This document shows positions 1,133-16,060 of a stretch of 64,000 nucleotides of DNA, piece by piece. A model generated the notes under the pieces. It was not told where the DNA came from and did not search any database. It saw nothing but the letters and a program-made list of their open reading frames with translations. Position 1 is the first letter of the stretch; each line of letters begins with the position of its first letter. The translations under genes and the position numbers were made by a program. The DNA comes from Candidatus Hodarchaeota archaeon (GTDB lineage Archaea; Asgardarchaeota; Lokiarchaeia; Sigyniarchaeales; SOKP01): assembly GCA_048887225.1 (NCBI GenBank), contig JBHLJY010000006.1:1-64000 (forward strand), read 5' to 3'.

Positions 1133-1148
1133 ATGAATAATCATTCAT
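1133..1148. promoter_or_regulatory. 16-bp palindromic operator, copy 1 (ATGAATAATCATTCAT)
   Basis: Upstream of DUF5320-dtxR; motif recurs 8 times in the locus. Confidence 0.8.
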
Positions 1149-1193
1149 TTTATGCTACTATCCTATTATGAGTTAGGAGTAATTCTTGGGGGT

Positions 1194-1209
1194 GTGAATA
1201 ATCATTCAT
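1194..1209. promoter_or_regulatory. 16-bp operator, copy 2 (GTGAATAATCATTCAT)
   Basis: 61 bp after copy 1, followed closely by TATA-like TTTAAATA. Confidence 0.8.
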
Positions 1210-1284
1210 ATTTAAATATTAATGTTTCTTTTATTATATTAGAAAAAAAAAATTAAATCTAAAAAAAAGAGTTGATAAAAAAAA

Positions 1285-1668
1285 ATGCCTAGAGGAGATG
1301 GTACGGGACCTTGGGGTCAAGGTCCTATAACTGGCAGAGGATTAGGCTATTGTACTGGATATGACACACCAGGCTATGCCAAAGCTCCTGGAATGGGATT
1401 AAGAAGAGGATTAAGATCGGGTTTTGGATTAGGTTATGGGAGAGGAGCTGGTTGGCGTAGAGGGACCGGGAGAAGATTTAGTGGTTACTGGGGCTATGGC
1501 GTTACAAATGTAGTTCCACTTCCCATTTATTCACCTCCAATTACGCCTGAAACTCAATTGAATATGCTTAAGCAAGAGAAACAATTTTTAGAATCTGATA
1601 TAGAAGGGATAAAAAGTGCAATAGACGATATCTCTAAAAGAATTGAGGAATTAGAAAAAACTGAATAA
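1285..1668 (+). CDS. DUF5320 family Gly/Arg-rich protein with C-terminal coiled coil
   Basis: N-terminus MPRGDGTGPWGQGPITGRGLGYC is characteristic; C-terminal heptads LKQEKQFLESDIEGIKSAIDDISKRIEELE. Confidence 0.85.
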   Translation: MPRGDGTGPWGQGPITGRGLGYCTGYDTPGYAKAPGMGLRRGLRSGFGLGYGRGAGWRRGTGRRFSGYWGYGVTNVVPLPIYSPPITPETQLNMLKQEKQFLESDIEGIKSAIDDISKRIEELEKTE

Positions 1669-1718
1669 TTCCTTTATTTTTTTTTAATTGAAAATTCATA
1701 TTATAATTTTAAAATCAA

Positions 1719-2090
1719 ATGAAAGACTTAAATGAAAGTTATGAAGATTATTTAAAAGCCATTTATATCATTTCAAGAAGAAACAAAGGTGGTTGGGTTT
1801 CCAATTTAGAGATTTCTGAATGCTTAAATGTTAAACCACCCTCAGTGTCTGATATGCTACATAAATTAAAAGAGAAAGGATTAGTAAATTGGGAACCAAG
1901 AAAATCAATACGATTAACAGATAAAGGAAAGGAAATAGCAATCAAAATGATTCAGAATTATAACATTTTGTATAAATTTTTTAAACAAATCTTAAAAATA
2001 AAAGATAATTCATTATTGGAAGATCTTTGCTGCGGTATTGAGCATCATATGACTCCAGAAATATCTGAATCTTTACAGGGTTTATTATGA
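1719..2090 (+). CDS. DtxR/MntR family metal-dependent transcriptional regulator (no FeoA domain)
   Basis: EDYLKAIY, wHTH LNVKPPSVSDMLHKL, IRLTDKG, CGIEHHM. Confidence 0.9.
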   Translation: MKDLNESYEDYLKAIYIISRRNKGGWVSNLEISECLNVKPPSVSDMLHKLKEKGLVNWEPRKSIRLTDKGKEIAIKMIQNYNILYKFFKQILKIKDNSLLEDLCCGIEHHMTPEISESLQGLL

Positions 2091-2110
2091 ATAAATTTAG
2101 TTTTAAATAA

Positions 2111-3049
2111 TTATTTAATGGCATTTAATTTCCAAAAGATCTTATTGTTATAAATTATCCTTTTAATCATTTTTCGATATTCAAGTGTTATTAATCTCTG
2201 TAAAATTTTTTCTCGGTCGAAATTACTAGAAGAAAAAGTCTCAATAATTTGATCTTGTCTCATAGGATGTCTTTTAATTATTGATAGAAATTCTTTTTCA
2301 AAATCTGAAGAATATATATGAAATTTTCCCATCTCAGGATAATGAATATCAGAATATTCAACGAAAACTTTATTCAATAATGAAATAAAATTTTTATTTG
2401 GTATTTTAACCCACTTTTCAGTAGGAGGTCTTATAGGAACATTTATATCAATTCTATCAGGCTTTATTAAATCAATTTTTTCTTTTATTTTTAATAACTC
2501 ATTCTTGGAATCATTAATCCCATTCATTATCATAATTTCAATCCAAAATTTTCCCTCGTAAGATTTCCTAAACTCTATAAATCCTTGGATTATATCATCA
2601 TATTTAATTGAAGGATAAGGGCGATTAATTTTAATAAATAAATTTTCATCACCAGCATCTAAACTAGGTAAGATTACATCAGCATGCATAAGTGCATTGC
2701 TGACTTCTTCATTATTTAATAATGCGCCATTTGTAATTATGCAGATGGGCTTTTTTGATGCTTTTTTTGTATTTAAAATCAAATCTCCTAAATCTTTATA
2801 TAAAGTTGGTTCTCCGCTGCCAACAAAAGTTATATAATCTATTTCTTTTTCATTTTGTTTAACTGCTTCTCTAATTTCATAGTTAATATCTTCTTTTGGA
2901 TAATAGTTTCTCCGTTTATTTGTAAAATGGGTCGTTTTTCCTAATTGACAATAGATACATTGGAAATTACAAGTTTTTGAAGGAATAGGATCTATCCCTA
3001 ATGATCTTCCTAATCTCCTGCTCGGCACAGGTCCATAGACATACTTCAT
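2111..3049 (-). CDS. Radical SAM Fe-S oxidoreductase (COG0731-type)
   Basis: YGPVPSRRLGRSLGID, CNFQCIYC (CxxxCxxC), GSGEPTL, ITNG. Confidence 0.9.
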   Translation of the reverse strand: MKYVYGPVPSRRLGRSLGIDPIPSKTCNFQCIYCQLGKTTHFTNKRRNYYPKEDINYEIREAVKQNEKEIDYITFVGSGEPTLYKDLGDLILNTKKASKKPICIITNGALLNNEEVSNALMHADVILPSLDAGDENLFIKINRPYPSIKYDDIIQGFIEFRKSYEGKFWIEIMIMNGINDSKNELLKIKEKIDLIKPDRIDINVPIRPPTEKWVKIPNKNFISLLNKVFVEYSDIHYPEMGKFHIYSSDFEKEFLSIIKRHPMRQDQIIETFSSSNFDREKILQRLITLEYRKMIKRIIYNNKIFWKLNAIK

Positions 3050-3072
3050 TTAGTCTTTCAATATGAATATTA

Positions 3073-3816
3073 TTACATTAAAATAATTAAGACAATAATT
3101 CCAATTCCTGCTAAAATCAAGATTATTTGCCTAATGCCATATCCTAATCCTACATTCCGATGTAAATCAGGTGTTAAATCTGATAGCGCAATATATACAA
3201 AACTTGCTGCTGAAATTGCGATAATAAAAGGGATGGTGGAACTTACAATATCTAAAATATAATAACCAAGAATAGCTGCAGGAATGGTAGTCGAACTTGA
3301 TAAAAGATTTAGTAGAAATGCTTTTCTTTTTGAGTATTGATTTTGAAGGAGAATACCAAAATCACCAATTTCTTGTGGAATTTCATGCGTTAATACTGAA
3401 AAACTAATTATTATTCCAAGTGGAATAGAAATTAAAAAACTTGCCGCAATAACAATACCGTCTATAAGATTATGGAATGCATCACCAATTAGAATGATAG
3501 GACCTGCCGCACTATGGACTTCGCATGTTTCAACACGACAGTGGTGCCAAATTATTATCTTTTCGAGAAGGAAAAAAAAGATAATTCCGCCCAGAAAAAA
3601 TGACATAATAATCGAAGGATCGCTCTGAGATATGGCTTTTGGTATCATTACTAATAGGGCAACTGCGAGTAAAGTACCTGTAGCGTATGCAATTAAACAG
3701 GATACTAGAATTGTCTGAATCCTTTTTTTAAACAAGAGAAAAAGTCCTGCCGCAATTACCGCTCCAATACTACCTAAAATACTGAAAAAAACAATCAATG
3801 TTAAAATTCTAATCAA
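3073..3816 (-). CDS. ZIP family divalent metal transporter
   Basis: WHHC loop, GDAFHNLIDG, HEIPQEIGDFG; 4-bp overlap with the upstream scaffold gene. Confidence 0.92.
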   Translation of the reverse strand: MIRILTLIVFFSILGSIGAVIAAGLFLLFKKRIQTILVSCLIAYATGTLLAVALLVMIPKAISQSDPSIIMSFFLGGIIFFFLLEKIIIWHHCRVETCEVHSAAGPIILIGDAFHNLIDGIVIAASFLISIPLGIIISFSVLTHEIPQEIGDFGILLQNQYSKRKAFLLNLLSSSTTIPAAILGYYILDIVSSTIPFIIAISAASFVYIALSDLTPDLHRNVGLGYGIRQIILILAGIGIIVLIILM

Positions 3817-4253
3817 CTCCTATCATATTTATATTTTTCAATTACGCGCTTTAAAGTTCTAATTGCCAATTCTGCGCAATGTTTATGATCATCAGGTAAC
3901 CCTTTTAATGCTTTGTCAATATCTTCTGGATTTAAGCTTTCAGCAAAATCTAAAGATTTGCCCTCAATCATAAGTGTCGTCTGGCTTCCTGAGGCTACAG
4001 TTGCTCCACACCCATCTGTAATAAAATTTGCTTTTTCGATTATATTATTATTAATTTTTAAAAAGAACTGCATCGTATCCCCGCAAGGACCTTCATAAGC
4101 ATGCCATACACTTATTTTATTTTCTTGTGGTTTTCCCCAATTTTTTGGATTATGGAATAATCCAACAATATATTCATTATATTGCTCTAGTTCTTTATCT
4201 ATAATTTCTTTTTGTAGTTTCTTAACAAACTCATCAAAATTTTCTTTAGACAT
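3813..4253 (-). CDS. IscU/NifU-N-like Fe-S scaffold protein
   Basis: HNPKNWG and three Cys motifs: GPCGD, DGCGA, HKHCAEL. Confidence 0.9.
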   Translation of the reverse strand: MSKENFDEFVKKLQKEIIDKELEQYNEYIVGLFHNPKNWGKPQENKISVWHAYEGPCGDTMQFFLKINNNIIEKANFITDGCGATVASGSQTTLMIEGKSLDFAESLNPEDIDKALKGLPDDHKHCAELAIRTLKRVIEKYKYDRS

Positions 4254-4289
4254 GGTACCTTAAAAAACTTCTTTTACAGTAAAACTAAA

Positions 4290-5162
4290 TTACTTTTCCA
4301 AAATTTCTTGAATATTCCTTACAGCTTCCTTGAAAGCTTTCGCACTCATACTATCTGAATATTTTATAATAAAAGGGAGACCTTGATCTCCTTGAATTCC
4401 TATTTCAACTTCAAAAGGAATTCTTCCCAATAGTCGAACATTGAAATCTTTAGCTGCTTTTTCAACACCTCCAGGAGGGTAAAGATCAATATATTTGCCG
4501 CAATGAGGACAGTCAAATCCGGACATGTTTTCAATAATCCCTAGAACATTTCTCTCCATAATTTGAGCCATTTTTATTGTCTTACGAGCATCCATAAGAG
4601 CAACTTCTTGTGGAGTAGACACAACAATAACATTTTCGTCAGGTATAAGCTGAAGAATATCTAAAGTCTCGTCAGAAGTTCCAGGGGGTAAATCACATAC
4701 TAAATAATCAAGCGCGCCCCAAATAGCGTCTCCAAGAAATTGTCGTACTACTCCCATTTTCATTGGTCCTCTCCAAATTACAGGTGAATCAGCACTTTCA
4801 ATAAGAAAGGCCATGCTCATAACTTTGGTATTTAAAGGTCCGTTAACTGGATAAAATTTTAGGGCTTCAGTGTCTACTCTTGGTTTTAATCCTGGGCTTA
4901 TTCCTAACATTTTCACAACATTAGGACCAGTAATATCGACATCTAATATTCCTATCCTTAATCCTATTCTAGCTAAACTTATGGCAAGATTTACAGCGAC
5001 GGTAGTTTTCCCAACCCCTCCTTTACCAGAAATAATCACAATCTTATGCTTAATTTTTTCCATATTTTTTTTAATTTCCTCCATACGTTGGTCCATGGCT
5101 TCTTTTTTGCCTTGTTCTACAGTTTCTTTTAAATTTATGTCCGGTACTTCATCTTCTTGCAT
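4290..5162 (-). CDS. mrp: Mrp/Nbp35 (ApbC) Fe-S carrier ATPase
   Basis: SGKGGVGKTT, DVDITGP, WRGPMK, DLPPGTSD, ENMSGFDCPHCG. ATG at 5162 preferred over the TTG at 5201. Confidence 0.93.
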   Translation of the reverse strand: MQEDEVPDINLKETVEQGKKEAMDQRMEEIKKNMEKIKHKIVIISGKGGVGKTTVAVNLAISLARIGLRIGILDVDITGPNVVKMLGISPGLKPRVDTEALKFYPVNGPLNTKVMSMAFLIESADSPVIWRGPMKMGVVRQFLGDAIWGALDYLVCDLPPGTSDETLDILQLIPDENVIVVSTPQEVALMDARKTIKMAQIMERNVLGIIENMSGFDCPHCGKYIDLYPPGGVEKAAKDFNVRLLGRIPFEVEIGIQGDQGLPFIIKYSDSMSAKAFKEAVRNIQEILEK

Positions 5163-5331
5163 GATTTCATAACCTACTTTACAATTATTTAATTTTTTCA
5201 AATCACAATTATTTCTATTTAACTTTATCTTTAGATTGCCTTGTATATTGTTTTATAAATTTTATTGAAGTGTTAATTTCAAATTTTGGGTTAACTTTTT
5301 ATAGAACAGATTTATTTAATATATAGATATA

Positions 5332-5347
5332 ATGAATAATTATTCAT
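5332..5347. promoter_or_regulatory. 16-bp operator, copy 3 (perfect palindrome ATGAATAATTATTCAT)
   Basis: In the divergent spacer between the mrp operon and the NifX-ATPase operon. Confidence 0.85.
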
Positions 5348-5396
5348 AAAATTTAAATTTAAGGAAAAAAAAAGATATTAATTAAGAATATGAGGA

Positions 5397-5843
5397 TTGA
5401 ATAATATGGTAATTGTAGTAGTTCCATCTTCTGGAAATGGTGGATTAAATGAATCTATGAACGAAAAGTTTGGTCGCTGCGACTCATTCACATTTGTAAC
5501 AATTGAAGATAAATCCATTAAAGAAGTTAAATCTGTATCTAATATGGCTTCAAATGCTATGGGAGGAGCTGGAATACAAGCTTCTCAAACTATAGGGAAC
5601 CATGGAGCCAACGTCGTAATTGTTGGAAACATAGGACCTAATGCTGCACAATCATTAGCCGCGTTGAATTTAAAGATTTATCAAGCCCCTAATGAACAGT
5701 TAACAGTAAAAAAAGTTATAGAATTGTATATTGAAGGGAAATTACAAGAAATGAGCGGTTCAAATGTCAGTGCCCATTTTGGGATGGGGGGAGGTCGCGG
5801 GATGGGGGGTGGACGAGGCAGGAGGGGGGGGCGCAATTTTTAA
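5397..5843 (+). CDS. NifB/NifX (ORP-like) cofactor-binding protein with Gly/Arg-rich tail
   Basis: FGRCDSF, GGAGIQA, GNIGPNA, C-terminal HFGMGGGRGMGGGRGRRGG; the start may be the ATG at 5406. Confidence 0.9.
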   Translation: MNNMVIVVVPSSGNGGLNESMNEKFGRCDSFTFVTIEDKSIKEVKSVSNMASNAMGGAGIQASQTIGNHGANVVIVGNIGPNAAQSLAALNLKIYQAPNEQLTVKKVIELYIEGKLQEMSGSNVSAHFGMGGGRGMGGGRGRRGGRNF

Positions 5844-5890
5844 TTCATCAGATTAAAATTCAATGTAGTCTTGCTTTAATAAAGTAAAAA

Positions 5891-6811
5891 ATGCCTAAAA
5901 GACCCAAAATAATCTGCGTTACAGGAGGTAAAGGAGGTACTGGAAAAACTTTATTTGCTGTTAATTTGGCAACAATGTTTAAAAATGAAGGTAAAAAGAT
6001 TTTATTAATTGATGGAGACGTTGAAAATCCCAATACATATTTATTATTAGGTAGCGATCTTGAAAATAAAGAATCCGTTTTATTTTTTAAACCCAAAATT
6101 ATTGAAGAAAAATGTACTAAATGCGGTTTATGTGCTGAAAATTGTGCTCCTCATGCATTATTGCATATAAAAGACACATATCCGATACCAATTTTACCGG
6201 TTTGTTCTGGTTGTAAGTTATGTTATAAAATCTGTCCAGAAAAAGCGATTGAAGCAGATCAGAAGATTATTGGCTGGACATATTCAACAAAAAAAGATGG
6301 AATTTCACTCCTAATAGGAGAATTAAAACCAACTGAAGCCCGATCTGCTGCTGTAATAGAAGTTCTTCTTGAAAAACTTGATGATTTTATTAATAAAGAG
6401 CCAAGAAAATTCGATTATATTATTTTAGATACCGCTCCTGGTGCTCACTGTGATGTTGAATTATTGATTGATAAGGCAGATATAGTAATACCAGTAACAG
6501 AACCCACAGAATTTGGAAAATTAGATTTACTAAGGATAATTGAGCTGATTGAGTTAATAAATAAGGATTATCGAGCAATTGTAAATAGATCATCATTACT
6601 GGGATATAGAAATCAATTTTTAGAAGAGTTGGAAAAGAAGGATATAAAGATTTTAGGGGATATACCTTTAGATGACGACATTGTCAATTCATATTGTCAA
6701 GGAATCCCTTTAATGGACGAGAATAGTAAATTTAAAGGTGGAGAAGGATATAAATCATTTCAAAAAATATTTGAAAATTTGAAAATATGGGTACAAACAA
6801 ATAATACATAG
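5891..6811 (+). CDS. MinD-superfamily P-loop ATPase with inserted 2x[4Fe-4S] ferredoxin (COG1149)
   Basis: GGKGGTGKT, DGDVENPN, CTKCGLCAENC, CSGCKLCYKICP, DTAPGAHC, VTEPTEFG. Confidence 0.9.
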   Translation: MPKRPKIICVTGGKGGTGKTLFAVNLATMFKNEGKKILLIDGDVENPNTYLLLGSDLENKESVLFFKPKIIEEKCTKCGLCAENCAPHALLHIKDTYPIPILPVCSGCKLCYKICPEKAIEADQKIIGWTYSTKKDGISLLIGELKPTEARSAAVIEVLLEKLDDFINKEPRKFDYIILDTAPGAHCDVELLIDKADIVIPVTEPTEFGKLDLLRIIELIELINKDYRAIVNRSSLLGYRNQFLEELEKKDIKILGDIPLDDDIVNSYCQGIPLMDENSKFKGGEGYKSFQKIFENLKIWVQTNNT

Positions 6812-6826
6812 AAAAGAGGAAATGAT

Positions 6827-7753
6827 ATGGAAAGAAAGTCTGTAGGTATAATATCAGGTAAAGGTGGCGTTGGAAAAACATCGTTAACAGCATCATTAGC
6901 AGATCTTGTAAGAAAAGATAATGAAATAAATGCGATAATCTTAGATTGTGATGTCGATGCGCCTAATTTAGCGCTAATTCTTCCTGCAGATTCACATGAG
7001 AAAATAAAATCAATTGATATATTTACAACATTAAAAGCCATTTTTGTTGAGGCAAAATGTGTTCAATGCAATCAATGTATCGATGATCATTTCTGCGAAT
7101 TTAATGCTTTAAAATGGGATGAAACTAAATCTATTCCGTATATTGATTATTTGGCATGTGAAGGCTGTGGTGCATGTAAAGTTTTATGCCCAGAACAAGC
7201 ATTTGAAATAAACATTGTAAAAAGTGGAGAAATAATTTATTTTAAAACTAACTTCAGTTTACCCTTAGTATATGGTAAAACAAGGCTTGGTAGTACAACC
7301 TCTGGAAAATTGGTTTCAGATGTTAAAAAATTTGCACAGAATATTGATGATTTTGAAAATTTTAATTTGATTTTAATAGATGGACCTCCTGGTATAGGAT
7401 GCCCTGTAATTGCAACAGTTACGGGATTGGATTATATTATTACAATAACAGAACCGACACCCTCTGGATTACATGATCTTGCAAGAGCAATTGAGGTTGT
7501 ACAACAGTTCGAAATTCCTTTTAGTATTGTAATAAATAAATTCGATTTAAAAAGTCCTTTTCAAGATGAATTTAAACATTATATTGATGATACTGGCTAT
7601 AGTATTTTAGGAAGAATACCTTTTGATTTAGAAATACCTAAAGCAATGTCCTATGCTAAAACAGTTGTAGATTATGCTCCATATTCAAAGGCTAGTTTAG
7701 CCATTAAGGAGATATATAAAAAGCTAAAAAAAATCTTATGGAATACTAATTAA
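6827..7753 (+). CDS. MinD-superfamily P-loop ATPase with inserted ferredoxin (COG1149), second paralog
   Basis: SGKGGVGKTS, DCDVDAPN, CVQCNQC, CEGCGACKVLCP, SGKLV, DGPPGIGCPV, TEPTPSGLHDL. Confidence 0.92.
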   Translation: MERKSVGIISGKGGVGKTSLTASLADLVRKDNEINAIILDCDVDAPNLALILPADSHEKIKSIDIFTTLKAIFVEAKCVQCNQCIDDHFCEFNALKWDETKSIPYIDYLACEGCGACKVLCPEQAFEINIVKSGEIIYFKTNFSLPLVYGKTRLGSTTSGKLVSDVKKFAQNIDDFENFNLILIDGPPGIGCPVIATVTGLDYIITITEPTPSGLHDLARAIEVVQQFEIPFSIVINKFDLKSPFQDEFKHYIDDTGYSILGRIPFDLEIPKAMSYAKTVVDYAPYSKASLAIKEIYKKLKKILWNTN

Positions 7754-7812
7754 CTCTGATATTATAATCTTTATAAGGAAATTATTTAATAATTACCCTT
7801 AAATTCATAGTT

Positions 7813-8232
7813 TTAAATAAGTTCTCTAACAAAGTAATAGACATTTTTTGAATTACACTTAACACAAAAAACTTTTTGTTCTTTGGATGCAGATCTATCT
7901 TCCCATTCATGATTGCAATCTAAACATCCATACCCAATAAAAGTTACTTTATAATCAAATTCGCCACCAAAAACCTTAATTATTTTTCCCTCGATCAGAG
8001 CTTGAGTGATTTTTTGGTGAGCTCTATCTATGATACGTGAAAATGTAGGTTGACTTATACCCATCCATTCAGCTGCCTTCTCCTGATTCAATTTCATATA
8101 ATGTTTAAGACGCAACGCCTCAAATTCTGTAACGGCTAAAATAATACAATCATCCATTTTAGTTTTCTCACTAGAGAAATAAAAGTTATCAGGTTGTCGG
8201 CCAACCCATCTGCGGCGATATTTTCTTCCCAT
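7813..8232 (-). CDS. DUF134 HTH protein with C-terminal zinc ribbon (putative regulator)
   Basis: EFEALRLKHYMKLNQEKAAEWMGISQPTFSRIIDRAHQKITQALIEGK; CLDC...CVKC. Confidence 0.9.
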   Translation of the reverse strand: MGRKYRRRWVGRQPDNFYFSSEKTKMDDCIILAVTEFEALRLKHYMKLNQEKAAEWMGISQPTFSRIIDRAHQKITQALIEGKIIKVFGGEFDYKVTFIGYGCLDCNHEWEDRSASKEQKVFCVKCNSKNVYYFVRELI

Positions 8233-8387
8233 ATCGAATCAACTAAAGATTTATCAACATGAAATCTAAGTAAAAAAAAAATGTAATATTAATATTTATT
8301 TAATTTAATTTTAATAATTAATTATTCAATATACTCAATAAGTCAAGTCCATTAATCAGAATTCCATATTTTAATTTTATTTTATTT

Positions 8388-8403
8388 TTGAATAATTATT
8401 CAT
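8388..8403. promoter_or_regulatory. 16-bp operator, copy 4 (TTGAATAATTATTCAT)
   Basis: In the divergent spacer between DUF134 and the second NifX gene. Confidence 0.8.
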
Positions 8404-8472
8404 TAAATTTAAATTTTATAAAAGTATATTACTCTTTAGATAAATAAATTAAGATAAAGGTAGATAATAAAG

Positions 8473-8880
8473 ATGAAAATTGCAATTAGTTCAGATTCGG
8501 GAGAAGTCTCTCCGCATTTTGGTCGCGCTCCAGAATTTACTTTTATTACAATTGAAGATAATAGAGTAGTTAAAAAAGACGTGTTTCCCAATCCAGGACA
8601 TACTGTGGGAAACATACCCCAATTTATAGATGAACAAGGAGCAAAATGCATTATTACAGGTGGAATGGGTCCACGAGCGGTCCAATTTTTCAATCAATTT
8701 GGTATAGATGTTATCATGGGTGTTAGTGGAAATATCGATGATACTGTTGAAAAGATATTAAATGGAACTCTAGAAGGTGGAGAAAGTCTATGCTCACCAG
8801 GTGGGGGTAAAGGTTATGGGATTGATAAAATTCATACTGAGGCTGATAACGATCATGACCATTATCATCCCCATCTTTAA
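8473..8880 (+). CDS. NifB/NifX family protein with His-rich C-terminus
   Basis: MKIAI, VSPHFGRAPEF, NPGH, ITGGMGPRA, tail HTEADNDHDHYHPHL. Confidence 0.9.
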   Translation: MKIAISSDSGEVSPHFGRAPEFTFITIEDNRVVKKDVFPNPGHTVGNIPQFIDEQGAKCIITGGMGPRAVQFFNQFGIDVIMGVSGNIDDTVEKILNGTLEGGESLCSPGGGKGYGIDKIHTEADNDHDHYHPHL

Positions 8881-8934
8881 TTCTAAATCCTAATAAAAGA
8901 ACATTAGAATAAAAAATAAAAAAAATTAGAATTA

Positions 8935-9441
8935 TTATCTAATTTGTACTTTTGGTGTAATTTTAGAAGCGCCTCCAAAATTGGTAACAACAGGACAATG
9001 GCTAAAGACTTTATCCATTAACTCGTTAATTTTTTCTTCTGGAGCATCCGCCTTGATTCTGATCACAGGCTCAAGTTTGTCGTATCCTGCTAATTTAGAA
9101 TCATCAATTCCAAAAATTGCACCTAAATTAATATGTCCTCGAGAAAAAACTTTCAGTTCTTCTATCTTTATATCCATAATTTTGGCCCAAAATTTGGTCA
9201 CAGCAATAATGCAAGCGCCAATTGAAGATAGTATTACTAATAAAGGAGATGGTCCTTTATTTGTACCATCTAATCCACCAGGAGCATCAATAAGTAATTT
9301 AAAAGGGTCTCCTGCTGGATTTCCCATCGTACACATAACTTGCATGCCGTCTGAAAGCATTTCACATTCTATATTAAAGTTCTTCTCTCCCGCATTCCAA
9401 TCTACCTTAATAGCATCATAAGTTCCTTTAAAACTTGGCAT
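8935..9441 (-). CDS. OsmC/Ohr family protein
   Basis: DAPGGLDGTNKGPSP, SIGAC, HCPV (two conserved Cys). Confidence 0.85.
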   Translation of the reverse strand: MPSFKGTYDAIKVDWNAGEKNFNIECEMLSDGMQVMCTMGNPAGDPFKLLIDAPGGLDGTNKGPSPLLVILSSIGACIIAVTKFWAKIMDIKIEELKVFSRGHINLGAIFGIDDSKLAGYDKLEPVIRIKADAPEEKINELMDKVFSHCPVVTNFGGASKITPKVQIR

Positions 9442-9496
9442 TTTTTCTTACACTTTTTAATTTTCATAAATTATTTTTTACATTTAATCAAAATTT

Positions 9497-9883
9497 TTAA
9501 TATTTAAAGTCGTGAGTATGCTCAGAGTAATTAATGCAGCTAGAACCCATTAAAGGCTTTAATTTTTCTTTCAATAGAAGTTTCACATTGTTCTCTATGG
9601 TATCACTTACACCTTGATATAAGTTTATACCAATTTGTTGAAATCCAACGAAAGGACGTCCACCAATACCACCTACGATCATATCTGTAACATTTCTTTC
9701 TTTCATATTCATGACAGGTTCCATACATCCAGAATGTTCCTCATTGCGTAAAGAAAATACTCTTTTAAAACTGTTTTCATCAATTACTTCAATTCCAACA
9801 AAATATTTACAATGACCAAAATGAACTGAAATCTCGTCGAATAATTCAGGTCCATTAGAAGGGATTCCAATAATTCTTTTCAT
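9497..9883 (-). CDS. NifB/NifX family protein (third paralog)
   Basis: HFGHCKYF, HSGCMEPV, VGGIGGRP. Confidence 0.88.
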   Translation of the reverse strand: MKRIIGIPSNGPELFDEISVHFGHCKYFVGIEVIDENSFKRVFSLRNEEHSGCMEPVMNMKERNVTDMIVGGIGGRPFVGFQQIGINLYQGVSDTIENNVKLLLKEKLKPLMGSSCINYSEHTHDFKY

Positions 9884-9953
9884 ATTCTAATACTCACTAC
9901 TTTTTGATATTTTTTTATTGTGATAGTAAAACGTTTTTTAATATATATAATTT

Positions 9954-9969
9954 ATGAATGATTATTCAT
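9954..9969. promoter_or_regulatory. 16-bp operator, copy 5 (ATGAATGATTATTCAT)
   Basis: Exact reverse complement of copy 1; in the divergent nifX3/cdhA spacer. Confidence 0.82.
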
Positions 9970-10014
9970 TAAACTTATATAATAAAGGACTTTTTATTAT
10001 TATAATATGTGTTT

Positions 10015-10030
10015 ATGAATGGTTATTCAT
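10015..10030. promoter_or_regulatory. 16-bp operator, copy 6 (ATGAATGGTTATTCAT)
   Basis: 61 bp after copy 5 and ~30 bp upstream of the likely cdhA start. Confidence 0.78.
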
Positions 10031-10061
10031 ATTTAGATATTTAAAAAATGAAGTGAAGAAA

Positions 10062-12410
10062 TTGAGTAAAAAAGGTGCAAAAATCAAAATAGATGAATAT
10101 AAAGGACCCTTAGGTTCAATTAAAGGATTTGAATTGACTACAGGTAAGGTAAGCTGGGGAGACGAGACTGAATGGGAACCTATAGGACCACATCCAATGC
10201 CTCATATCCCGACCCTACGCAGTTGGTTTTTTAAGTTAATGGAAAGATATAAACCTTTTTACATGCCTATATGTGATATGTGCTGTCTTTGCACATATGG
10301 GAAATGTAATCTCTCAAAAGGCAGAACTGGTGCATGTGGGATTAATATGGAAACTCAACAAGCGAGAATTGTTGAAGTAGCTTGCTGTATTGGTGCAGCG
10401 TGTCATAGCGCTCATGGGGATCACTTACTTCATTGGTTAAAAGAGAAATATGGAAATGTGCCAATTAATTTCGGTAATAATATCGCCGTGGAAATGCCAC
10501 ACACTCGATTAGTAGTGGGGATGAAACCAGAAACTTTAGAAGATCTTGAGACGGCAATGGAATGGGTACACTTTATAATTACACACTTACTTGCTGCTGG
10601 ACATACAGGTCAAGAATCTAACTATTTAGACTTTGAAGCTAAAAGCTTTTTAGCAGGGCTTGCAGATTCTGTGGGTATGGAAATAAGTGATGCTGTCCAG
10701 ATTGCAGCATATGGATTTCCTATGGGGGATCCTGATGTCCCTATTGTTGAGTTAGGAATGGGAACTATGGATCCAGAAAATAAAGCAGTAATTTTAATGA
10801 TTGGTCACAATGTTGCACCTGGTGTCGAATTGGTAGATTATATTAGAGAAAAAGGATATGATGATAAAGTAGATGTTGGCGCAATCTGTTGTACAGCTCA
10901 TGATTTGACAAGATACTACGACGGTGCAAAAATCATTGGCTCTATGTCGAGACAACTACATTTCATTCGGTCCGGTCTGGCCGATGTGGTGATGGTCGAC
11001 GAGCAATGTGTTAATTTAAGAAGCTTCGAGCAAGCTCAACTTGTAGATGCTCCTTTTATTGCAACAAATGAGAAGATTATGGGTGGACTTCCAGACAGAA
11101 CAAATGATCCAACAATAGAAATTGTTGATGATTTAATAAGCGGTAAAATGCCAGGAGTTTTAATACTGGATCCAATAAAAGCCGGTGAAGTTGCTGCTGA
11201 AACTGCATTAAAAGTGAAACCAATAAGGAATGCGAAAAGCGGTCTACCAGACGAGCAGGGTTGCATTGATATGGCAATGAGATGTAATGGATGTAGCAAT
11301 TGTCAACGAAACTGTCCAAATGATTTGCCACTGGTAGAAGGTATTAATTTAGTTAAAGAAGGTAATTTTTCTGTTTTAGAGGGAGTTTTTGATGAATGTC
11401 TAGGATGTGGACGATGCGAATCCGATTGTATGAAAAATGTTTCTCCTTTAACTTTATTAATGTATGCTGGCAGAGAAAAGATTAGAACAGAGAGATTTAA
11501 ATGTAGAGTTGGCAGAGGACCTATAATGGATACAGAAATTCGAAATGTAGGTGCTCCAATTGTTTTTGGAGAAATCCCAGGAATTGTTGCCATAATAGGT
11601 TGTGCAAATTATGGAAAAAAGATACAAGAATTATATGTTATGGCAGAAGAATTTTGTAAGAGAAATTATATCGTTGTGGTTTCTGGTTGCGGAGCTATGG
11701 ATATTGGTCTTGTAAAGAATGAAGAGGGATTGACTTTATATGATAGATTTTCTGGCGATTTTGATAGAGGGGGTTTAGTAAATGTTGGTTCGTGCGTTTC
11801 GAATCCACACATTACTGGGGCTGCTTGCAAAGTTGCAAATATTTTTGCCAGGCGTCCTTTAAGGGGTAATTTTGAAGAAATTGCAGATTATATACTTAAT
11901 CGTGTAGGAGCTGTTGGTGTTGCATGGGGTGCGATGAGTCAGAAAGCTGCAAGCATCGCAAGTATGGCCAACGGCCTAGGTATCCCTGCAGTAATAGGAC
12001 CACACGCAGCAGAATATAGGAGAATATACATTGGTAGATCAGATGACGAAAATACTTGGAAAGTGTTTAATGCTAGAGATGGAACACCAGATCATTTAGT
12101 AGGTCCTGGTCCAGAACATTTATTAACAACTGCTGAATCAATTGAACAAGCTATATGCTTAGTTGCTAAAATGTGTTTAAGACCTGCTGATAATTCAAAA
12201 GGTAGAATGATAAAATTATCTCATTGGATTGATTTAGAAAGGAAGTACAAAGGTGTTAAATTTCCAAACGATTTAGAGAAATTTATCCGTGTTGAGACAG
12301 ACATTCCAATTAACATAAAAACTGAGATATCAGATTATCTCGAAGAGAAGGGATGGAAACCAAAAGAAGTGATTGATCCTACTTTACTCGAGAGACTTTG
12401 TCATAGTTAA
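10062..12410 (+). CDS. cdhA: CO dehydrogenase/acetyl-CoA synthase complex alpha subunit (archaeal CODH)
   Basis: CDMCCLCTYGKC...GACG; C-cluster ligand motifs GHNV, ICCTAHD, DEQC, GCAN, SGCG, GSCVSN; two ferredoxin motifs. The ORF-track start (9954) lies inside an operator, so TTG 10062 or GTG 10053 is more plausible. Confidence 0.95.
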   Translation: MSKKGAKIKIDEYKGPLGSIKGFELTTGKVSWGDETEWEPIGPHPMPHIPTLRSWFFKLMERYKPFYMPICDMCCLCTYGKCNLSKGRTGACGINMETQQARIVEVACCIGAACHSAHGDHLLHWLKEKYGNVPINFGNNIAVEMPHTRLVVGMKPETLEDLETAMEWVHFIITHLLAAGHTGQESNYLDFEAKSFLAGLADSVGMEISDAVQIAAYGFPMGDPDVPIVELGMGTMDPENKAVILMIGHNVAPGVELVDYIREKGYDDKVDVGAICCTAHDLTRYYDGAKIIGSMSRQLHFIRSGLADVVMVDEQCVNLRSFEQAQLVDAPFIATNEKIMGGLPDRTNDPTIEIVDDLISGKMPGVLILDPIKAGEVAAETALKVKPIRNAKSGLPDEQGCIDMAMRCNGCSNCQRNCPNDLPLVEGINLVKEGNFSVLEGVFDECLGCGRCESDCMKNVSPLTLLMYAGREKIRTERFKCRVGRGPIMDTEIRNVGAPIVFGEIPGIVAIIGCANYGKKIQELYVMAEEFCKRNYIVVVSGCGAMDIGLVKNEEGLTLYDRFSGDFDRGGLVNVGSCVSNPHITGAACKVANIFARRPLRGNFEEIADYILNRVGAVGVAWGAMSQKAASIASMANGLGIPAVIGPHAAEYRRIYIGRSDDENTWKVFNARDGTPDHLVGPGPEHLLTTAESIEQAICLVAKMCLRPADNSKGRMIKLSHWIDLERKYKGVKFPNDLEKFIRVETDIPINIKTEISDYLEEKGWKPKEVIDPTLLERLCHS

Positions 12411-12455
12411 AATCAGATAAATTGACACCTCACATATCAATAGTGTTAGAAGCTT

Positions 12456-12938
12456 ATGTTAAATAAAGTATTTAAAGAAGATGAAATAATAATAAGAAAT
12501 TATAGAACTTCAGATTATCACGCTACTTTAGAAATATTAAAACAACTCCATGAGATATATGATATTGGGTTAAAGGAAAAGCAATGGAAGAAATCTTCTG
12601 GTTTAAGGCAATTTAAACCAAATTTAAAACGTATAACTTTAATTGCTGAACTAAAATCAACTGGCGATGTTGTATGTATGGGAGTAATCGAAGCTTTAAG
12701 AAATCCTTTAGGGCAATATATTGGATACTTAAATAATTGGGCTACTAAAAAAGAGTTTATAGGTAAAGGTATAGGCAAAATTTTAGCAGATAAAGCTATA
12801 TCAATTTTAAGATCATGGGGTTGTGAATCAATAAGAATTAATCTTGGTTATGGGATCTCTGAAAAGTTGATTAAGGTGTTTGAACGCACACGATTCAAGC
12901 CCATTATGATAGTTTTAGAAAAGAGATTTGATAAATAA
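12456..12938 (+). CDS. GNAT family N-acetyltransferase
   Basis: IIIRNY...EFIGKGIGKIL acetyl-CoA motif. Confidence 0.75.
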   Translation: MLNKVFKEDEIIIRNYRTSDYHATLEILKQLHEIYDIGLKEKQWKKSSGLRQFKPNLKRITLIAELKSTGDVVCMGVIEALRNPLGQYIGYLNNWATKKEFIGKGIGKILADKAISILRSWGCESIRINLGYGISEKLIKVFERTRFKPIMIVLEKRFDK

Positions 12939-13002
12939 ATTTATCTTTCAATTGAGTTGTTAAAACCTAAGGATAATAAGAATAAAAATCGCAGTATAGA
13001 AA

Positions 13003-14424
13003 ATGAATGATTTTAAAGTAAATGATTATATAACACTCAAACTTGAAAATAATAAAACGGTTATTTATTTAAATAATGAAAAGTTTGTTCAGTGTAAATA
13101 TTTATTAATAAATATACCGATAAATAAAACCTCTTTATTTGATGATATTGCATCTATTGATGATATAGCAGAGATGTTGGATCATTCAATGGAAGCCAAT
13201 AAAGATATGGGATTAAAAATATCTCCAAAAACCGAATTTTGGGGTCATTGTTCAAATCTCCAAGTTTGGTATGAAAATAATTACAATTCATGCTTATTAC
13301 ATAGAAGTTTAGCGTTCCCTATGCTTAAAAGATTGACAGAAATAGGGGATCCTATCGCAAAGAAAGTTTTTAAAGATGAAATCGCTTTTAGATTTACAAA
13401 CGGTCCTCTTAATATTATGAATTATTTAATGGAGGAAGGTTATTTAAATTACTTGAGTGAGGAAGAATTTGGATCGTTATTAATGGATATTAAAAAGAAG
13501 AAAATCGATTTTATCATTTATCCTGAGAGAAAATTAGAATTTGTAGAAAATGGTACATTAGACTTAAAGAACAAAGGTATTGATGACTTAGCTAAAATTG
13601 TAGGTCTTGAAAGCATTAAAACAAATATAGAATTGAATTTAATAAATAACCAATTAATGATGTTACCTGAGTCGATTGGTGATTTAAAATCTTTACAAAG
13701 ACTTTATTTAGACTGGAATAAATTAAAAATATTACCAGAGTCGATTGGCGACTTAAAATCGCTACAAGAACTTTGTCTAAGAAACAATGATTTAAAAATA
13801 TTACCAGAGTCGATAGGCGACTTAAAATCGCTTAAACAGTTGGATTTAAGTGGAAATAACTTAACAGCCATTCCAGAGACTATAGGTAATTTATGGTCGT
13901 TACAAGAATTATATTTAGATGATAATCGAATAATGATGTTGCCAGAGTCGATTGGCGACTTAAAATCGCTACAAACTCTTTATTTAAGAAATAATCACCT
14001 TACATCGCTCCCGGAGGCCATAGGCAATTTACAAATGCTTAAAAGATTAGATTTAAGTGAAAATGAATTAATTATTCTTCCAGAATCTATTGGCAACTTA
14101 AAATTACTTCAGGAAGTTTTTTTAGAACACAATCAATTAATAACACTCCCAGAAACTATAGGAAATTTACATTCACTTCAAAAATTATTCTTAAGTTGGA
14201 ATAATTTAAAAGCACTTCCAAATTCCATTGGAAAATTGCATTCTCTCAAAATATTGAATTTATATGATAATCACCTAATTAAGCTCCCAAGATCTATCAA
14301 TAGATTACATTCTCTCTCAGATCTCTATTTAGTCGGAAACGAATTAACAGCAAAACCAGCATCTATTAATAATTCTACATTACTTCAAAAATTGGAAAGT
14401 AGGGGTATAGAAGTTTATAAATAA
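13003..14424 (+). CDS. Leucine-rich repeat protein with Lokiarchaeia-type N-terminal domain
   Basis: FKVNDYITLKLE...EFWGHCSNLQVW...LAFPMLKRL N-terminus followed by ~11 23-aa LRRs (LPESIGDLKSLQxLxLxxNxL). Confidence 0.9.
   Translation: MNDFKVNDYITLKLENNKTVIYLNNEKFVQCKYLLINIPINKTSLFDDIASIDDIAEMLDHSMEANKDMGLKISPKTEFWGHCSNLQVWYENNYNSCLLHRSLAFPMLKRLTEIGDPIAKKVFKDEIAFRFTNGPLNIMNYLMEEGYLNYLSEEEFGSLLMDIKKKKIDFIIYPERKLEFVENGTLDLKNKGIDDLAKIVGLESIKTNIELNLINNQLMMLPESIGDLKSLQRLYLDWNKLKILPESIGDLKSLQELCLRNNDLKILPESIGDLKSLKQLDLSGNNLTAIPETIGNLWSLQELYLDDNRIMMLPESIGDLKSLQTLYLRNNHLTSLPEAIGNLQMLKRLDLSENELIILPESIGNLKLLQEVFLEHNQLITLPETIGNLHSLQKLFLSWNNLKALPNSIGKLHSLKILNLYDNHLIKLPRSINRLHSLSDLYLVGNELTAKPASINNSTLLQKLESRGIEVYK
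13666..13974 (+). repeat. 69-bp-period near-identical LRR coding repeats
   Basis: Units start at 13666, 13735, 13804 and 13942; the 33-mer CCAGAGTCGATTGGCGACTTAAAATCGCTACAA is identical at 13735 and 13942. Confidence 0.85.
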
Positions 14425-14487
14425 ACTTTTCAGTATTAATAAAATCCTACTAGATTATAAAAATTTACTGAATAAAATATAAAAGAC

Positions 14488-14539
14488 AAGATATTCTATA
14501 TTAGGGAAACAGAATAATTTGAATATGAATAATCATTTA
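14488..14539 (+). promoter_or_regulatory. 52-bp promoter cassette copy A, containing operator copy 7 (ATGAATAATCATTTAT, 14525-14540)
   Basis: AAGATATTCTATATTAGGGAAACAGAATAATTTGAATATGAATAATCATTTA; 51/52 identical to 15681-15732. Confidence 0.88.
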
Positions 14540-14580
14540 TAAATAATAATTCAAAATTTTAAAACTGAGAAGAAATCAAC

Positions 14581-15597
14581 ATGAGTGTAGATATATATGA
14601 TGGAATAGAAAGTGGGAATTTAATAATTAGAGTTTTAACGACAAATTCAGTTGTTTCGACTTTATTAACGGATGAGAAATTTCAAGGAAAAGTTATTCAA
14701 CCTCAAACTAATGGAAGTAAATTAATAGCAGAACATGGGCTTGCTATGAGTCTTGAAATAACCGAAGGAGAGAGCAAAAAAATGTTTCTTTTGGATGCGG
14801 GGGGGCCAAAAAATACAATTATTCAGAATGCTCAGGCAATAGGAATTAATTTTAGTGATTATGATAAGTTGTTATTAAGTCATGGGCACATTGATCATTA
14901 TGGAGGTTTTTTTAAAGTTCTACCTCAATTAAAGGAAGGTTGTGAAATAATATTAACTCCAAATTCATACAATCAACACGTTATATATTTACCAAAATCT
15001 GGTCGATCTCATTATAAGCCCGAAGAATTGACAGAAAACCTTCGTGAATTACAAAAACAAAATACTTTTAGTTTTAGCTTTAAATTACCACCTTTAAAAA
15101 AATCCATAATTGAAAACTTGGCAAATCAACATAATCTTAAAATAGTAGAAACACCTGCCCCTATTAAATTAACAAATGGCATAATTACAAGCGGAGAAAT
15201 AGAACTGTTTGATGAGAACGAGGTCACAAAGGGAATGTATCTCATGAAAGGAAGAAAAGAATTTGCCAAAAATTTCTTCAGGGACGAGATTTCAATATAT
15301 ATTAATGTAAAAGATAAAGGTTTAGTTGTGATAACGGGCTGTGGACATACAGGTATTATAAACATTATTAAACATGGGCAAAAGCTAACTGGAATTGATA
15401 AATTATATGCTGTAATTGGTGGATTTCATAAGGAATGGGAAAAACCTCAAGACATTGAAGCCTCTGTAGAATTTATTGAGGATCTTAATCCTGAGATAAC
15501 TTGTGGGATGCATTGTACCGGTTTTGAATTTAATAAAATTATGTCAAGGCATCCGTCTCACACATTTGGAATAGTGGGAACAGAATTTCATTTATAA
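14581..15597 (+). CDS. MBL-fold metallo-hydrolase (COG1237-type)
   Basis: AEHGLA, LLDAG, LSHGHIDHYGG, ITGCGHTG, IGGFH, GMHCTG. Confidence 0.9.
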   Translation: MSVDIYDGIESGNLIIRVLTTNSVVSTLLTDEKFQGKVIQPQTNGSKLIAEHGLAMSLEITEGESKKMFLLDAGGPKNTIIQNAQAIGINFSDYDKLLLSHGHIDHYGGFFKVLPQLKEGCEIILTPNSYNQHVIYLPKSGRSHYKPEELTENLRELQKQNTFSFSFKLPPLKKSIIENLANQHNLKIVETPAPIKLTNGIITSGEIELFDENEVTKGMYLMKGRKEFAKNFFRDEISIYINVKDKGLVVITGCGHTGIINIIKHGQKLTGIDKLYAVIGGFHKEWEKPQDIEASVEFIEDLNPEITCGMHCTGFEFNKIMSRHPSHTFGIVGTEFHL

Positions 15598-15680
15598 TTT
15601 GCTATATCCTCTTTTTTTTTAATCTTGAATAAATATTCTTTTATTAAGTAATTTAAATATCATTATAAAATAGAAAAGAA

Positions 15681-15732
15681 AAGATATTTTATATTAGGGA
15701 AACAGAATAATTTGAATATGAATAATCATTTA
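15681..15732 (+). promoter_or_regulatory. 52-bp promoter cassette copy B, containing operator copy 8 (ATGAATAATCATTTAA, 15718-15733)
   Basis: 51/52 identical to 14488-14539; upstream of feoA. Confidence 0.88.
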
Positions 15733-15778
15733 AAATATTATTGAAAAAAAAATTTTTTAAGAAGAAGCAAAAACCATT

Positions 15779-16060
15779 ATGGAAACACCTAAGAATAATA
15801 ATAAGGGTACACCCTTAATAAAATGTTTAATTGAATGTAAAGAAGGAGAAGAACTTATTGTATTAAGAGTATATGCGGGTTTCATGGCAAAAAGAAGACT
15901 TGCTCATTTAGGAGTTGTTCCTGGAGTTAAAATAATTAAAAAAAAAGCGGCTCCGTTTCGAGGTCCTATTGAGATAATAGTGAAAGGATCATCATTGGTT
16001 ATAGGCAGAGGCTTGGCAAGTAAAATTATGGTGAAATGTGAAGGTTCTTGCATTCTTTAA
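15779..16060 (+). CDS. feoA: Ferrous iron transport protein A
   Basis: RRLAHLGVVPG, APFRGP, GRGLASKI; directly upstream of feoB. Confidence 0.92.
   Translation: METPKNNNKGTPLIKCLIECKEGEELIVLRVYAGFMAKRRLAHLGVVPGVKIIKKKAAPFRGPIEIIVKGSSLVIGRGLASKIMVKCEGSCIL

Follow-up and report, generated by a model that had tools for sequence, protein, structure and literature searches.

Which regulator reads a 16-bp palindrome that recurs ahead of cluster-assembly, iron-uptake and carbon monoxide dehydrogenase (CODH) genes at the start of an Asgard archaeal contig? The window analyzed here, 64,000 nucleotides of Candidatus Hodarchaeota archaeon (JBHLJY010000006.1, positions 1 to 64,000), is the start of contig C6 in a genome of 3.27 Mb and 30% GC. 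An earlier note, made from the letters of the window alone, had described eight copies of the palindrome, and had named a DUF134 helix-turn-helix (HTH) protein as the preferred regulator and DtxR as the alternative. Our analysis of sequences and predicted structures points to a repressor-operator regulon whose regulator probably comes from an orphan family of DeoR-like HTH proteins. In particular, we propose that ATGAAT-N4-ATTCAT most likely serves as operator for the DUF134 (UPF0251) protein, whose gene lies at 7813-8232.

Clustering and conservation of the palindrome

All eight copies were found within three mismatches of ATGAATAATTATTCAT (Table 1). They have a 6-4-6 form with a TGAA-N6-TTCA core, and their flanking sequences are not conserved. 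At this threshold the window holds 16 matches, whereas 100 dinucleotide shuffles gave 5.1 on average and never more than 12. The remaining 46 kb, where the earlier note had seen no strong copy, indeed contain only three-mismatch hits at 49256 and 52176. Genome-wide, 16 matches have at most two mismatches, and 7 of them fall within window positions 1133-14540. The core TGAAT-N4-ATTCA occurs 17 times in the genome, against about 16 occurrences expected from base composition, and 6 of the 17 are packed into about 9 kb (window 1134-10029), while 7 of the other 11 are intragenic. The clustering of the sites exceeds chance by far. The remaining core matches (C22:12881, C5:189488 and others) lie inside genes or beside unrelated genes and were treated as background.

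A position weight matrix (PWM) built from the eight sites and scanned over the genome placed them at 17.5 to 23.8 bits, with a clear gap below. The next scores were 20.0 bits for C10:65610 (intragenic), 16.8 for C4:184607 (promoter-proximal) and 15.7 for C2:224807, and one of these next hits lies 5′ of a TrmB gene. The C4 match (C4:184607-184622; L005 3607-3622), ATTAATAATTATTCAT, directly follows tttatata, 13 nt 5′ of a gene for a 791-aa CoA-disulfide-reductase/rhodanese/TusA protein that adjoins nifS-nifU. This match, outside the window, may represent a ninth site.

The palindrome is also conserved among relatives. Its exact pattern, ATGAATNNTNATTCAT, is present in 35 of 41 genomes (40 relatives and the window's own), and the reversed control is nearly absent. 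Among genomes of the same genus (L038, L055, L056 and L057), gene order differs and the sites are kept 5′ of the same transcription units, with a site pair every time at DUF5320(-dtxR). Perfect sites are found 5′ of feoAB, of DUF5320 and of a nifX1-ATPase-ATPase-nifX3-DUF134 operon in another family of the order. An Asgard-wide set of 80 DUF134 loci (770 kb) contains 141 copies of TGAAT-N4-ATTCA, spread over 41 loci, and none of its reversed control. Spacings of 2, 3, 5 or 6 bases are found 2 to 7 times each, so that the 4-base spacing is strict.

The arrangement of sites and genes recurs as a super-locus:

(site) nifX3 osmC .. <nifX2 (site) DUF134> <ATPaseB <ATPaseA <nifX1 (site) mrp> iscU> rSAM> <dtxR <DUF5320 (site) (site) feoA>

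When a site was scored within 260 nt 5′ of a gene in the Asgard DUF134 loci, DUF5320 was the most constant target, with a site in all 22 upstream regions. Sites were also present upstream of Mrp (30/34), NifX1 (30/36), NifX2 (30/33) and NifX3 (28/32). The site center lies 51 to 67 nt 5′ of the nifX1 start in relatives. Of 57 distinct neighboring site pairs, 39 are spaced 58 to 63 bp and 11 are spaced 22 to 27 bp. The groups that the earlier note had drawn together, DUF5320-dtxR, mrp-iscU-(zip)-rSAM, nifX-ATPase-ATPase, nifX2/DUF134 and nifX3-osmC, are therefore linked by the palindrome across relatives, and these comparisons of sequence indicate that it marks a real, conserved and old regulon.

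The CODH gene does not belong to that core. Sites at cdhA were found only in the window genome and in one relative of the same genus (L055), which share the site pair; only 2 of the upstream regions examined belonged to cdhA. It is a recruit restricted to the genus, outside the conserved core. Because cdhA was recruited in this genus only, CODH and Fe-S maturation, which the earlier note had offered as the function, is unsupported as a general statement.

Three further placements of the palindrome were observed in relatives. In G006, of the same genus (L040, L041), perfect copies lie 5′ of a thioredoxin reductase gene, a thioredoxin-thioredoxin-FMN reductase-SIR2 operon and a dodecin gene; because this genome adds thioredoxin reductase, two thioredoxins, FMN reductase and dodecin, the periphery of the regulon leans towards redox repair. 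In the family f2 genomes G032 (L044 4955) and G025 (L054 5119), a perfect palindrome stands between the convergent 3′ ends of genes for an Arf-like GTPase and GrpE. There is no gene of at least 60 aa downstream of it, and it may serve a small unannotated gene. Finally, the exact word TGAATGTCCATTCA appears once per genome in several distant relatives (G026, G030, G032 and G039), where it probably belongs to some conserved gene or RNA, not to an operator.

Could the palindrome lack a regulator altogether, as would a word of the AT-rich background, an element of the basal promoter or what is left of a small mobile repeat? The low GC content of the genome would favor such words, the genomic core count hardly differs from the compositional expectation, and two of the eight sites fall in a duplication of about 50 bp. 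The packing of the cores and the intragenic position of most others argue the opposite, as do the absence or near-absence of reversed controls, the strict spacing, the unconserved flanks and the persistence of the palindrome in genomes of up to about 60% GC. The conservation data already contradict a background word, and we regard this explanation as hardly credible.

DUF134 as the candidate reader

Given that the palindrome marks a regulon, its likely reader was sought beyond Asgard archaea. A search of 1.84 billion representative proteins with DUF134 yielded 2408 relatives (50%-identity cluster representatives, E up to 0.001), whose recognition helices fall into the classes SQPTFSR (Asgard), SQPTFHR and SR[QAP]TF[GHQ]R. 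A profile search of genome contigs with the DUF134 alignment returned the Asgard loci and one Bathyarchaeota locus, nothing bacterial, and the palindrome signal was not seen in that single Bathyarchaeota locus. An alignment of SQPTFHR-type non-Asgard DUF134 proteins fetched 80 metagenome loci with GC contents of 29 to 66%, whose proteins are 30 to 45% identical to the window's.

When every 5-N-5 palindrome in the 80 loci was counted without bias, GAATA-N2-TATTC and TGAAT-N4-ATTCA came out on top, and the latter occurs 59 times in 38 loci. In DUF134-mrp-nifX operons it lies 10 to 24 nt 5′ of the DUF134 start codon, and it also occurs as a pair 5′ of a DUF5320 gene adjoining DUF134. Only 1 of the 80 loci has a DtxR gene. 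One locus is from Ca. Alkanophaga (Halobacteriota; ribosomal protein uL2 100% identical), and a second is DPANN-like, with a leucyl-tRNA synthetase (LeuRS) closest to those of Aenigmatarchaeota and other DPANN lineages. For a third DUF134 protein, most of the nearest Atlas clusters are bacterial.

The half-site also varies with the recognition helix. In the 90 nt 5′ of the DUF134 start, GAAT-N4-ATTC was found for 25 of the 40 genes with helix SQ.TFHR, G[AG]AC or TGAC-N4-GT[CT][CA] for 22 of 22 with SR.TFHR, and GAGC-N4-GC[TC]C for 3 of 7 with SR.TFQR, with a single cross hit between helix classes in all; because sequences within a helix class are related, these counts overstate the number of independent events. 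The helix of the window's own protein, ISQPTFSRI, fits the class SQ.TF[SH]R with the GAAT half-site. Judged from the sequences, such covariation is the pattern expected of an autoregulated factor and its operator.

The predicted structure of DUF134 is consistent with this role. The protein combines an HTH carrying the recognition helix with a C-terminal four-Cys zinc-ribbon-like domain, and its AlphaFold2 (AF2) model (mean pLDDT 78) consists of a disordered basic N-terminus, a three-helix HTH and a beta-rich four-Cys tail. Its profile matches one solved family confidently, the DNA-binding domain of Bacillus subtilis DeoR (7bhy, 8r7y; E 2.2e−7). A Foldseek comparison of the HTH with DeoR gave 40 residues at an rmsd of 0.7 and 38% identity, and the HTH matches sigma-70 region 4 domains as well. 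Against the PDB, Foldseek found no match to the whole protein; the HTH and the zinc-ribbon part were matched separately. The four-Cys tail weakly resembles the zinc sites of Rpo12 and HypA and is missing from many short members of the family. No C-terminal sugar-phosphate-binding effector domain was found in DUF134 by Pfam.

In DeoR, the left half-operator, ATTGAACAAAATTTCAAT, has a TGAA-N6-TTCA core, and residue R39 touches bases in the solved complex (PMC11229326). This residue aligns with the covarying Q/R position of the DUF134 helix. A DUF134 homodimer was predicted in which the HTH domains meet through helices 1 and 3. Its score of 0.52, compared with 0.00 for the highest of 3 controls, passes a mark that is reached by 20 of 30 proteins solved as one-chain pairs and 1 of 23 solved as single chains, although the pass may reflect likeness only, because the DeoR dimer has already been solved. 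The runs share at least 46% of contacts, with a partner pLDDT of at least 66.

A different possibility is that the reader is DUF5320 itself, which has an Arg/Gly-rich N-terminus and a coiled coil, or an unlinked conserved transcription factor. The presence of sites at every DUF5320 gene counted is as expected of an autoregulated gene, and DUF5320 adjoins DUF134 in the DPANN-like loci; our literature search returned no paper on the function of either DUF5320 or DUF134. The palindrome nevertheless precedes DUF134-mrp-nifX in many loci without DUF5320 (L237, L258, L279 and L291), Pfam shows no recognizable DNA-binding fold in DUF5320, and the covariation is with the DUF134 helix. We therefore consider a DUF5320 or unlinked reader quite unlikely.

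Several observations, to which the relatedness within helix classes belongs, weigh against DUF134. Only two of the 80 metagenome loci have a known source organism. Some ten genomes of the same family (L099-L109) show no site within 1.5 kb of DUF134, and only 15 of 78 DUF134 upstream regions carry one, although within the super-locus DUF134 usually stands behind a site. G010 and G012 encode DUF134 and yet hold two core matches each. The dtxR gene of "type A" always has a site, including in L070, which lacks DUF5320, and in L008, of another family. Linkage within Asgard archaea does not separate dtxR from DUF134: both are in the super-locus, each behind sites. Both type A DtxR and DUF134 are also nearly universal among the 40 relatives, many of whose genomes are incomplete, which limits a comparison with motif counts. 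Lastly, each step from site to DUF134 binding and on to repression is an inference, and repression rather than activation is suggested by the position of the sites only. On balance, the non-Asgard loci, the covariation of helix and half-site and the homology to DeoR make DUF134 the best supported regulator, in line with the preference of the earlier note.

DtxR and the separate iron box at feoA

We initially favored DtxR as the reader of the palindrome. The window genome encodes two DtxR paralogues, whose recognition helices differ too little (MLH/YKL versus MLEKL) to point either way, and exactly one DUF134 gene. The type A DtxR (1719-2090) would then be an Fe(II)-dependent repressor of an iron and Fe-S regulon that includes its own operon. 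This would account for the site pair 5′ of DUF5320-dtxR in every genome examined, for the sites directly 5′ of dtxR in L070 and of the gene for a 205-aa DtxR in L008, for the "type B" paralogue never having sites, and for the site at feoAB in the window genome and in family f2. It would also suit a genome without Fur: the Fur family (PF01475) was not found in this 98%-complete genome and was detected in 13 of 14 control genomes. In G022 (L037 727-1043), the type A dtxR gene 3′ of DUF5320 is broken by a run of N in the assembly, which mimics a truncated gene or a loss of dtxR.

The motif, however, follows DUF134 outside Asgard archaea, where 79 of the 80 palindrome-family loci have no DtxR gene, and the half-site tracks the helix of DUF134. 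Family f2 genomes retain the palindrome without a type A DtxR, and their long DtxR has no site. The half-site is TGAAT rather than the TTAGG type of published archaeal DtxR-family motifs, such as TTTAGGC-N3-CCTAAA of Haloferax TroR (PMC10783522). Moreover, a classical IdeR/DtxR-like box exists elsewhere. A 14-bp palindrome, TTAG-N6-CTAA (for example, TTAGGCATGCCTAA and TTAGACATGTCTAA), lies just 5′ of the TTTAAATA box in 12 of 15 feoA upstream regions of relatives (among them L164, L165, L169, L175, L179, L193, L043, L050, L053 and L056). It is absent from the upstream regions of DUF5320 (0/22), Mrp (0/34), NifX1 (0/36) and NifX2 (0/33). With non-Asgard loci that lack dtxR, covariation with the DUF134 helix and a box of its own at feoA, the reading of the palindrome by DtxR was dropped and now appears unlikely.

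Most likely, DtxR is a target rather than a reader of the palindrome and, in relatives, controls feoA via TTAG-N6-CTAA. The simplest reading of these sequences is one of two layers, in which DUF134 would control DUF5320-dtxR and the cluster-carrier genes and DtxR would control feoA. The proposal of a single regulator for metal uptake and cluster assembly holds loosely for the window genome; in most relatives, two regulators appear to share the work. Likewise, the membership of feoAB in the regulon stands only in part. The TGAAT palindrome is present in 4 of the 15 feoA upstream regions and the iron box in 12, and in the window the feoA and metallo-beta-lactamase-fold (MBL) sites are the weakest.

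These two sites, 14525 and 15718, have weakened right halves (ATTTAT and ATTTAA). They lie in a promoter stretch of about 50 bp that is duplicated 5′ of the MBL gene (14490-14540) and of feoA (15683-15733), for which reason we count them as one event, and as operators they are the least certain of the eight. Each copy of the stretch combines a TATA-like word, a decayed iron box and a weakened operator; the iron box is TTAGGGAAACAGAA (14497-14517 and 15690-15710), and a weak DUF134-type site follows it. A weight matrix for TTAG-N6-CTAA gave no clear targets in the window's own genome. Because only a decayed box and a weak DUF134-type site remain, the control of feoAB is the least certain part of the picture in this genome.

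Proposed regulon and comparison with known systems

The gene names given in the earlier note were each confirmed by Pfam, and the layout of the window is summarized in Table 1. The listed open reading frame of cdhA begins at an ATG that belongs to a palindrome. A start at 10053 or 10062 makes all sites intergenic, as had been claimed, and a start at 10062 gives 782 aa, the length of the L055 orthologue. The TATA-like word ttttttaatatatataattt directly precedes site 9954, and a weak additional match is present at 8314-8329, in the DUF134/nifX2 intergenic region. Between the cdhA-GNAT genes and the MBL gene, the window encodes a 473-aa leucine-rich-repeat protein (13003-14424); leucine-rich-repeat genes stand beside the corresponding locus in relatives as well (L055, L163).

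Table 1. Palindrome sites and genes of the window. Mismatches are counted against ATGAATAATTATTCAT; genes were identified by Pfam.
Feature	Position	Strand	Remarks
Putative operator 1, ATGAATAATCATTCAT	1133..1148		1 mismatch; 23.8 bits (PWM); distal of a pair 61 bp apart; 137 nt 5′ of DUF5320 start
Putative operator 2, GTGAATAATCATTCAT	1194..1209		2 mismatches; proximal of the pair; 76 nt 5′ of DUF5320 start
DUF5320	1285-1668	+	First gene of DUF5320-dtxR operon (1285..2090)
dtxR, type A, 123 aa	1719-2090	+	Operon partner of DUF5320
radical-SAM	2111-3049	-	Operon mrp-iscU-ZIP-radical-SAM (2111..5201)
ZIP	3073-3816	-	mrp operon
iscU	3813-4253	-	mrp operon
mrp	4290-5201	-	mrp operon
Putative operator 3, ATGAATAATTATTCAT	5332..5347		0 mismatches (perfect palindrome); in the divergent mrp/nifX1 intergenic region; immediately follows the TATA-like word tttaatatata on the nifX1 side
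nifX1	5397-5843	+	First gene of unit 5397..7753
Two MinD/ParA-type ATPases with 4Fe-4S ferredoxin inserts	5891-6811, 6827-7753	+	nifX1 unit
DUF134 (UPF0251), 139 aa	7813..8232	-	Proposed reader (Pfam, alignment, AF2 model, DeoR homology, predicted homodimer)
Putative operator 4, TTGAATAATTATTCAT	8388..8403		1 mismatch; between divergent DUF134 and nifX2
nifX2 (NifX/NifB-C-terminal-like, PF02579)	8473..8880	+	
osmC	8935-9441	-	nifX3-osmC operon (8935..9883)
nifX3	9497-9883	-	nifX3-osmC operon
Putative operator 5, ATGAATGATTATTCAT	9954..9969		1 mismatch; 71 nt 5′ of nifX3; distal of the cdhA pair
Putative operator 6, ATGAATGGTTATTCAT	10015..10030		2 mismatches; 61 bp from operator 5; 23-32 nt 5′ of corrected cdhA start
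cdhA-like CODH catalytic subunit	10062..12410	+	Prismane (Pfam); start 10053 (GTG) or 10062 (TTG)
Operator-like site 7, ATGAATAATCATTTAT	14525..14540		2 mismatches; 41 nt 5′ of MBL gene; duplicated stretch
MBL gene	14581..15597	+	
Operator-like site 8, ATGAATAATCATTTAA	15718..15733		3 mismatches; weakest, 17.5 bits; 46 nt 5′ of feoA; second copy of the duplicated stretch
feoA	15779-16060	+	
feoB	16123-18294	+	

We hypothesize that DUF134 binds the palindrome as a homodimer, with each recognition helix reading one TGAAT half-site. Sites immediately follow TATA-like boxes or cover the presumed transcription start, and DUF134 bound there would block the recruitment of polymerase and repress the gene; this position, together with the non-Asgard site centers 10 to 24 nt before the start codon, suggests repression by occlusion. 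Pairs about 61 bp or, less often, about 24 bp apart may allow cooperative binding of two dimers, as in the tetramers of the SorC family. The conserved core regulon would comprise DUF5320(-dtxR), mrp-iscU-rSAM, nifX1 with the two ATPases, nifX2, nifX3-osmC and often DUF134 itself, that is, an "orange-protein-like" (ORP-like) set of Fe-S and metallocluster carriers. In the window genome, cdhA, the MBL gene, feoAB and perhaps the CoA-disulfide-reductase/rhodanese gene on C4 would be local additions.

What DUF134 might sense is suggested by its associations. Natural fusions of the DUF134 HTH and zinc ribbon with a NifX-like (PF02579) domain were observed among the DUF134 representatives (P0226, P0246), and nifX and DUF134 are often translationally coupled or adjacent. 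Given these fusions, this adjacency and the conserved four-Cys tail, a NifX-type carrier is a candidate sensing partner. Our best guess for the signal is the loading state of a NifX-like carrier, or else DUF134's own four-Cys domain, which would provide feedback by Fe-S or cluster supply and redox state; since the analogous orp operons of Desulfovibrio are switched by the redox-sensing OrpR, redox or cluster status is a reasonable guess. More speculatively, DUF134 and a NifX-like protein could form a two-part sensor across anaerobic archaea and bacteria, in which the loading of the carrier is passed to the repressor, fused to it in some organisms, and sets the level of orange-protein-type carriers, of DUF5320 and, through DtxR, of iron uptake. 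If this tentative idea is true, the ORP system and the orphan families DUF134 and DUF5320 would gain a defined regulatory logic, together with a simple recognition code between helix residues 2 and 6 and half-site bases 4 to 6.

Beyond that idea, the large orphan family DUF134/UPF0251 now has a putative operator, a conserved target set and an apparent helix-to-base rule. Orange-protein-type carrier genes are tied to a dedicated candidate regulator in Asgard archaea, and DUF5320 can be named as the most tightly controlled target of the proposed regulator. Control may fall into two layers, with the cluster carriers under DUF134 and Feo iron uptake under DtxR. The motif itself is a cheap marker of the regulon for the annotation of Asgard genomes.

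How does this regulon compare with known systems? IscR, SufR and RirA are Fe-S-status repressors of Fe-S assembly and iron uptake genes that are often autoregulated and respond to cluster supply. With DUF134 they offer a working analogy only: they are unrelated to it in sequence, and the Cys domain is missing from many of the short DUF134 proteins. The DtxR/IdeR/TroR boxes are likewise AT-rich palindromes in promoters, at iron-uptake genes, commonly with tandem sites and autoregulation, and a dtxR gene is in the locus. They differ from the palindrome described here in their TTAGG half-site and in that the latter travels with DUF134.

The gene content recalls the orp operons of Desulfovibrio vulgaris, in which NifX-fold (PF02579) proteins, two MinD/ParA ATPases with ferredoxin inserts and a Mrp-type ATPase are also clustered, and in which divergent operons likewise surround a dedicated regulator with palindromic sites. 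The regulon described here additionally includes DUF5320-dtxR, iscU, rSAM, osmC and the local recruits. The regulator proposed for it is a small HTH protein, probably a repressor, and archaea are not known to have sigma54. OrpR, in contrast, activates as a sigma54 enhancer-binding protein that senses redox through a [4Fe-4S] PAS domain, and it controls the two orp operons only (PMC8359166).

The proposed mode of DNA recognition is close to that of DeoR of B. subtilis (SorC family, DeoR subclass). The two proteins differ in build and in targets. DUF134, at 139 aa, has an N-terminal basic arm and the four-Cys tail instead of a sugar-phosphate effector domain, and its proposed targets are Fe-S and cluster-carrier genes in archaeal promoter contexts rather than genes of nucleoside catabolism. 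Their HTH domains are homologous (helix ISRPTVSR in DeoR, ISQPTFSR in DUF134), and the DeoR operator of dra-nupC-pdp, ATTGAA-N6-TTCAAT, has its core and spacing in common with the palindrome (PMC11229326). Palindromes 5′ of SR.TFHR-type DUF134 genes are similar to the right half of that operator, ACATATGTTCAA. In DeoR, the DNA-binding domains dimerize on DNA and two half-operators are bound cooperatively (PMC11229326), a feature that may have its counterpart in the paired sites of the DUF134 regulon.

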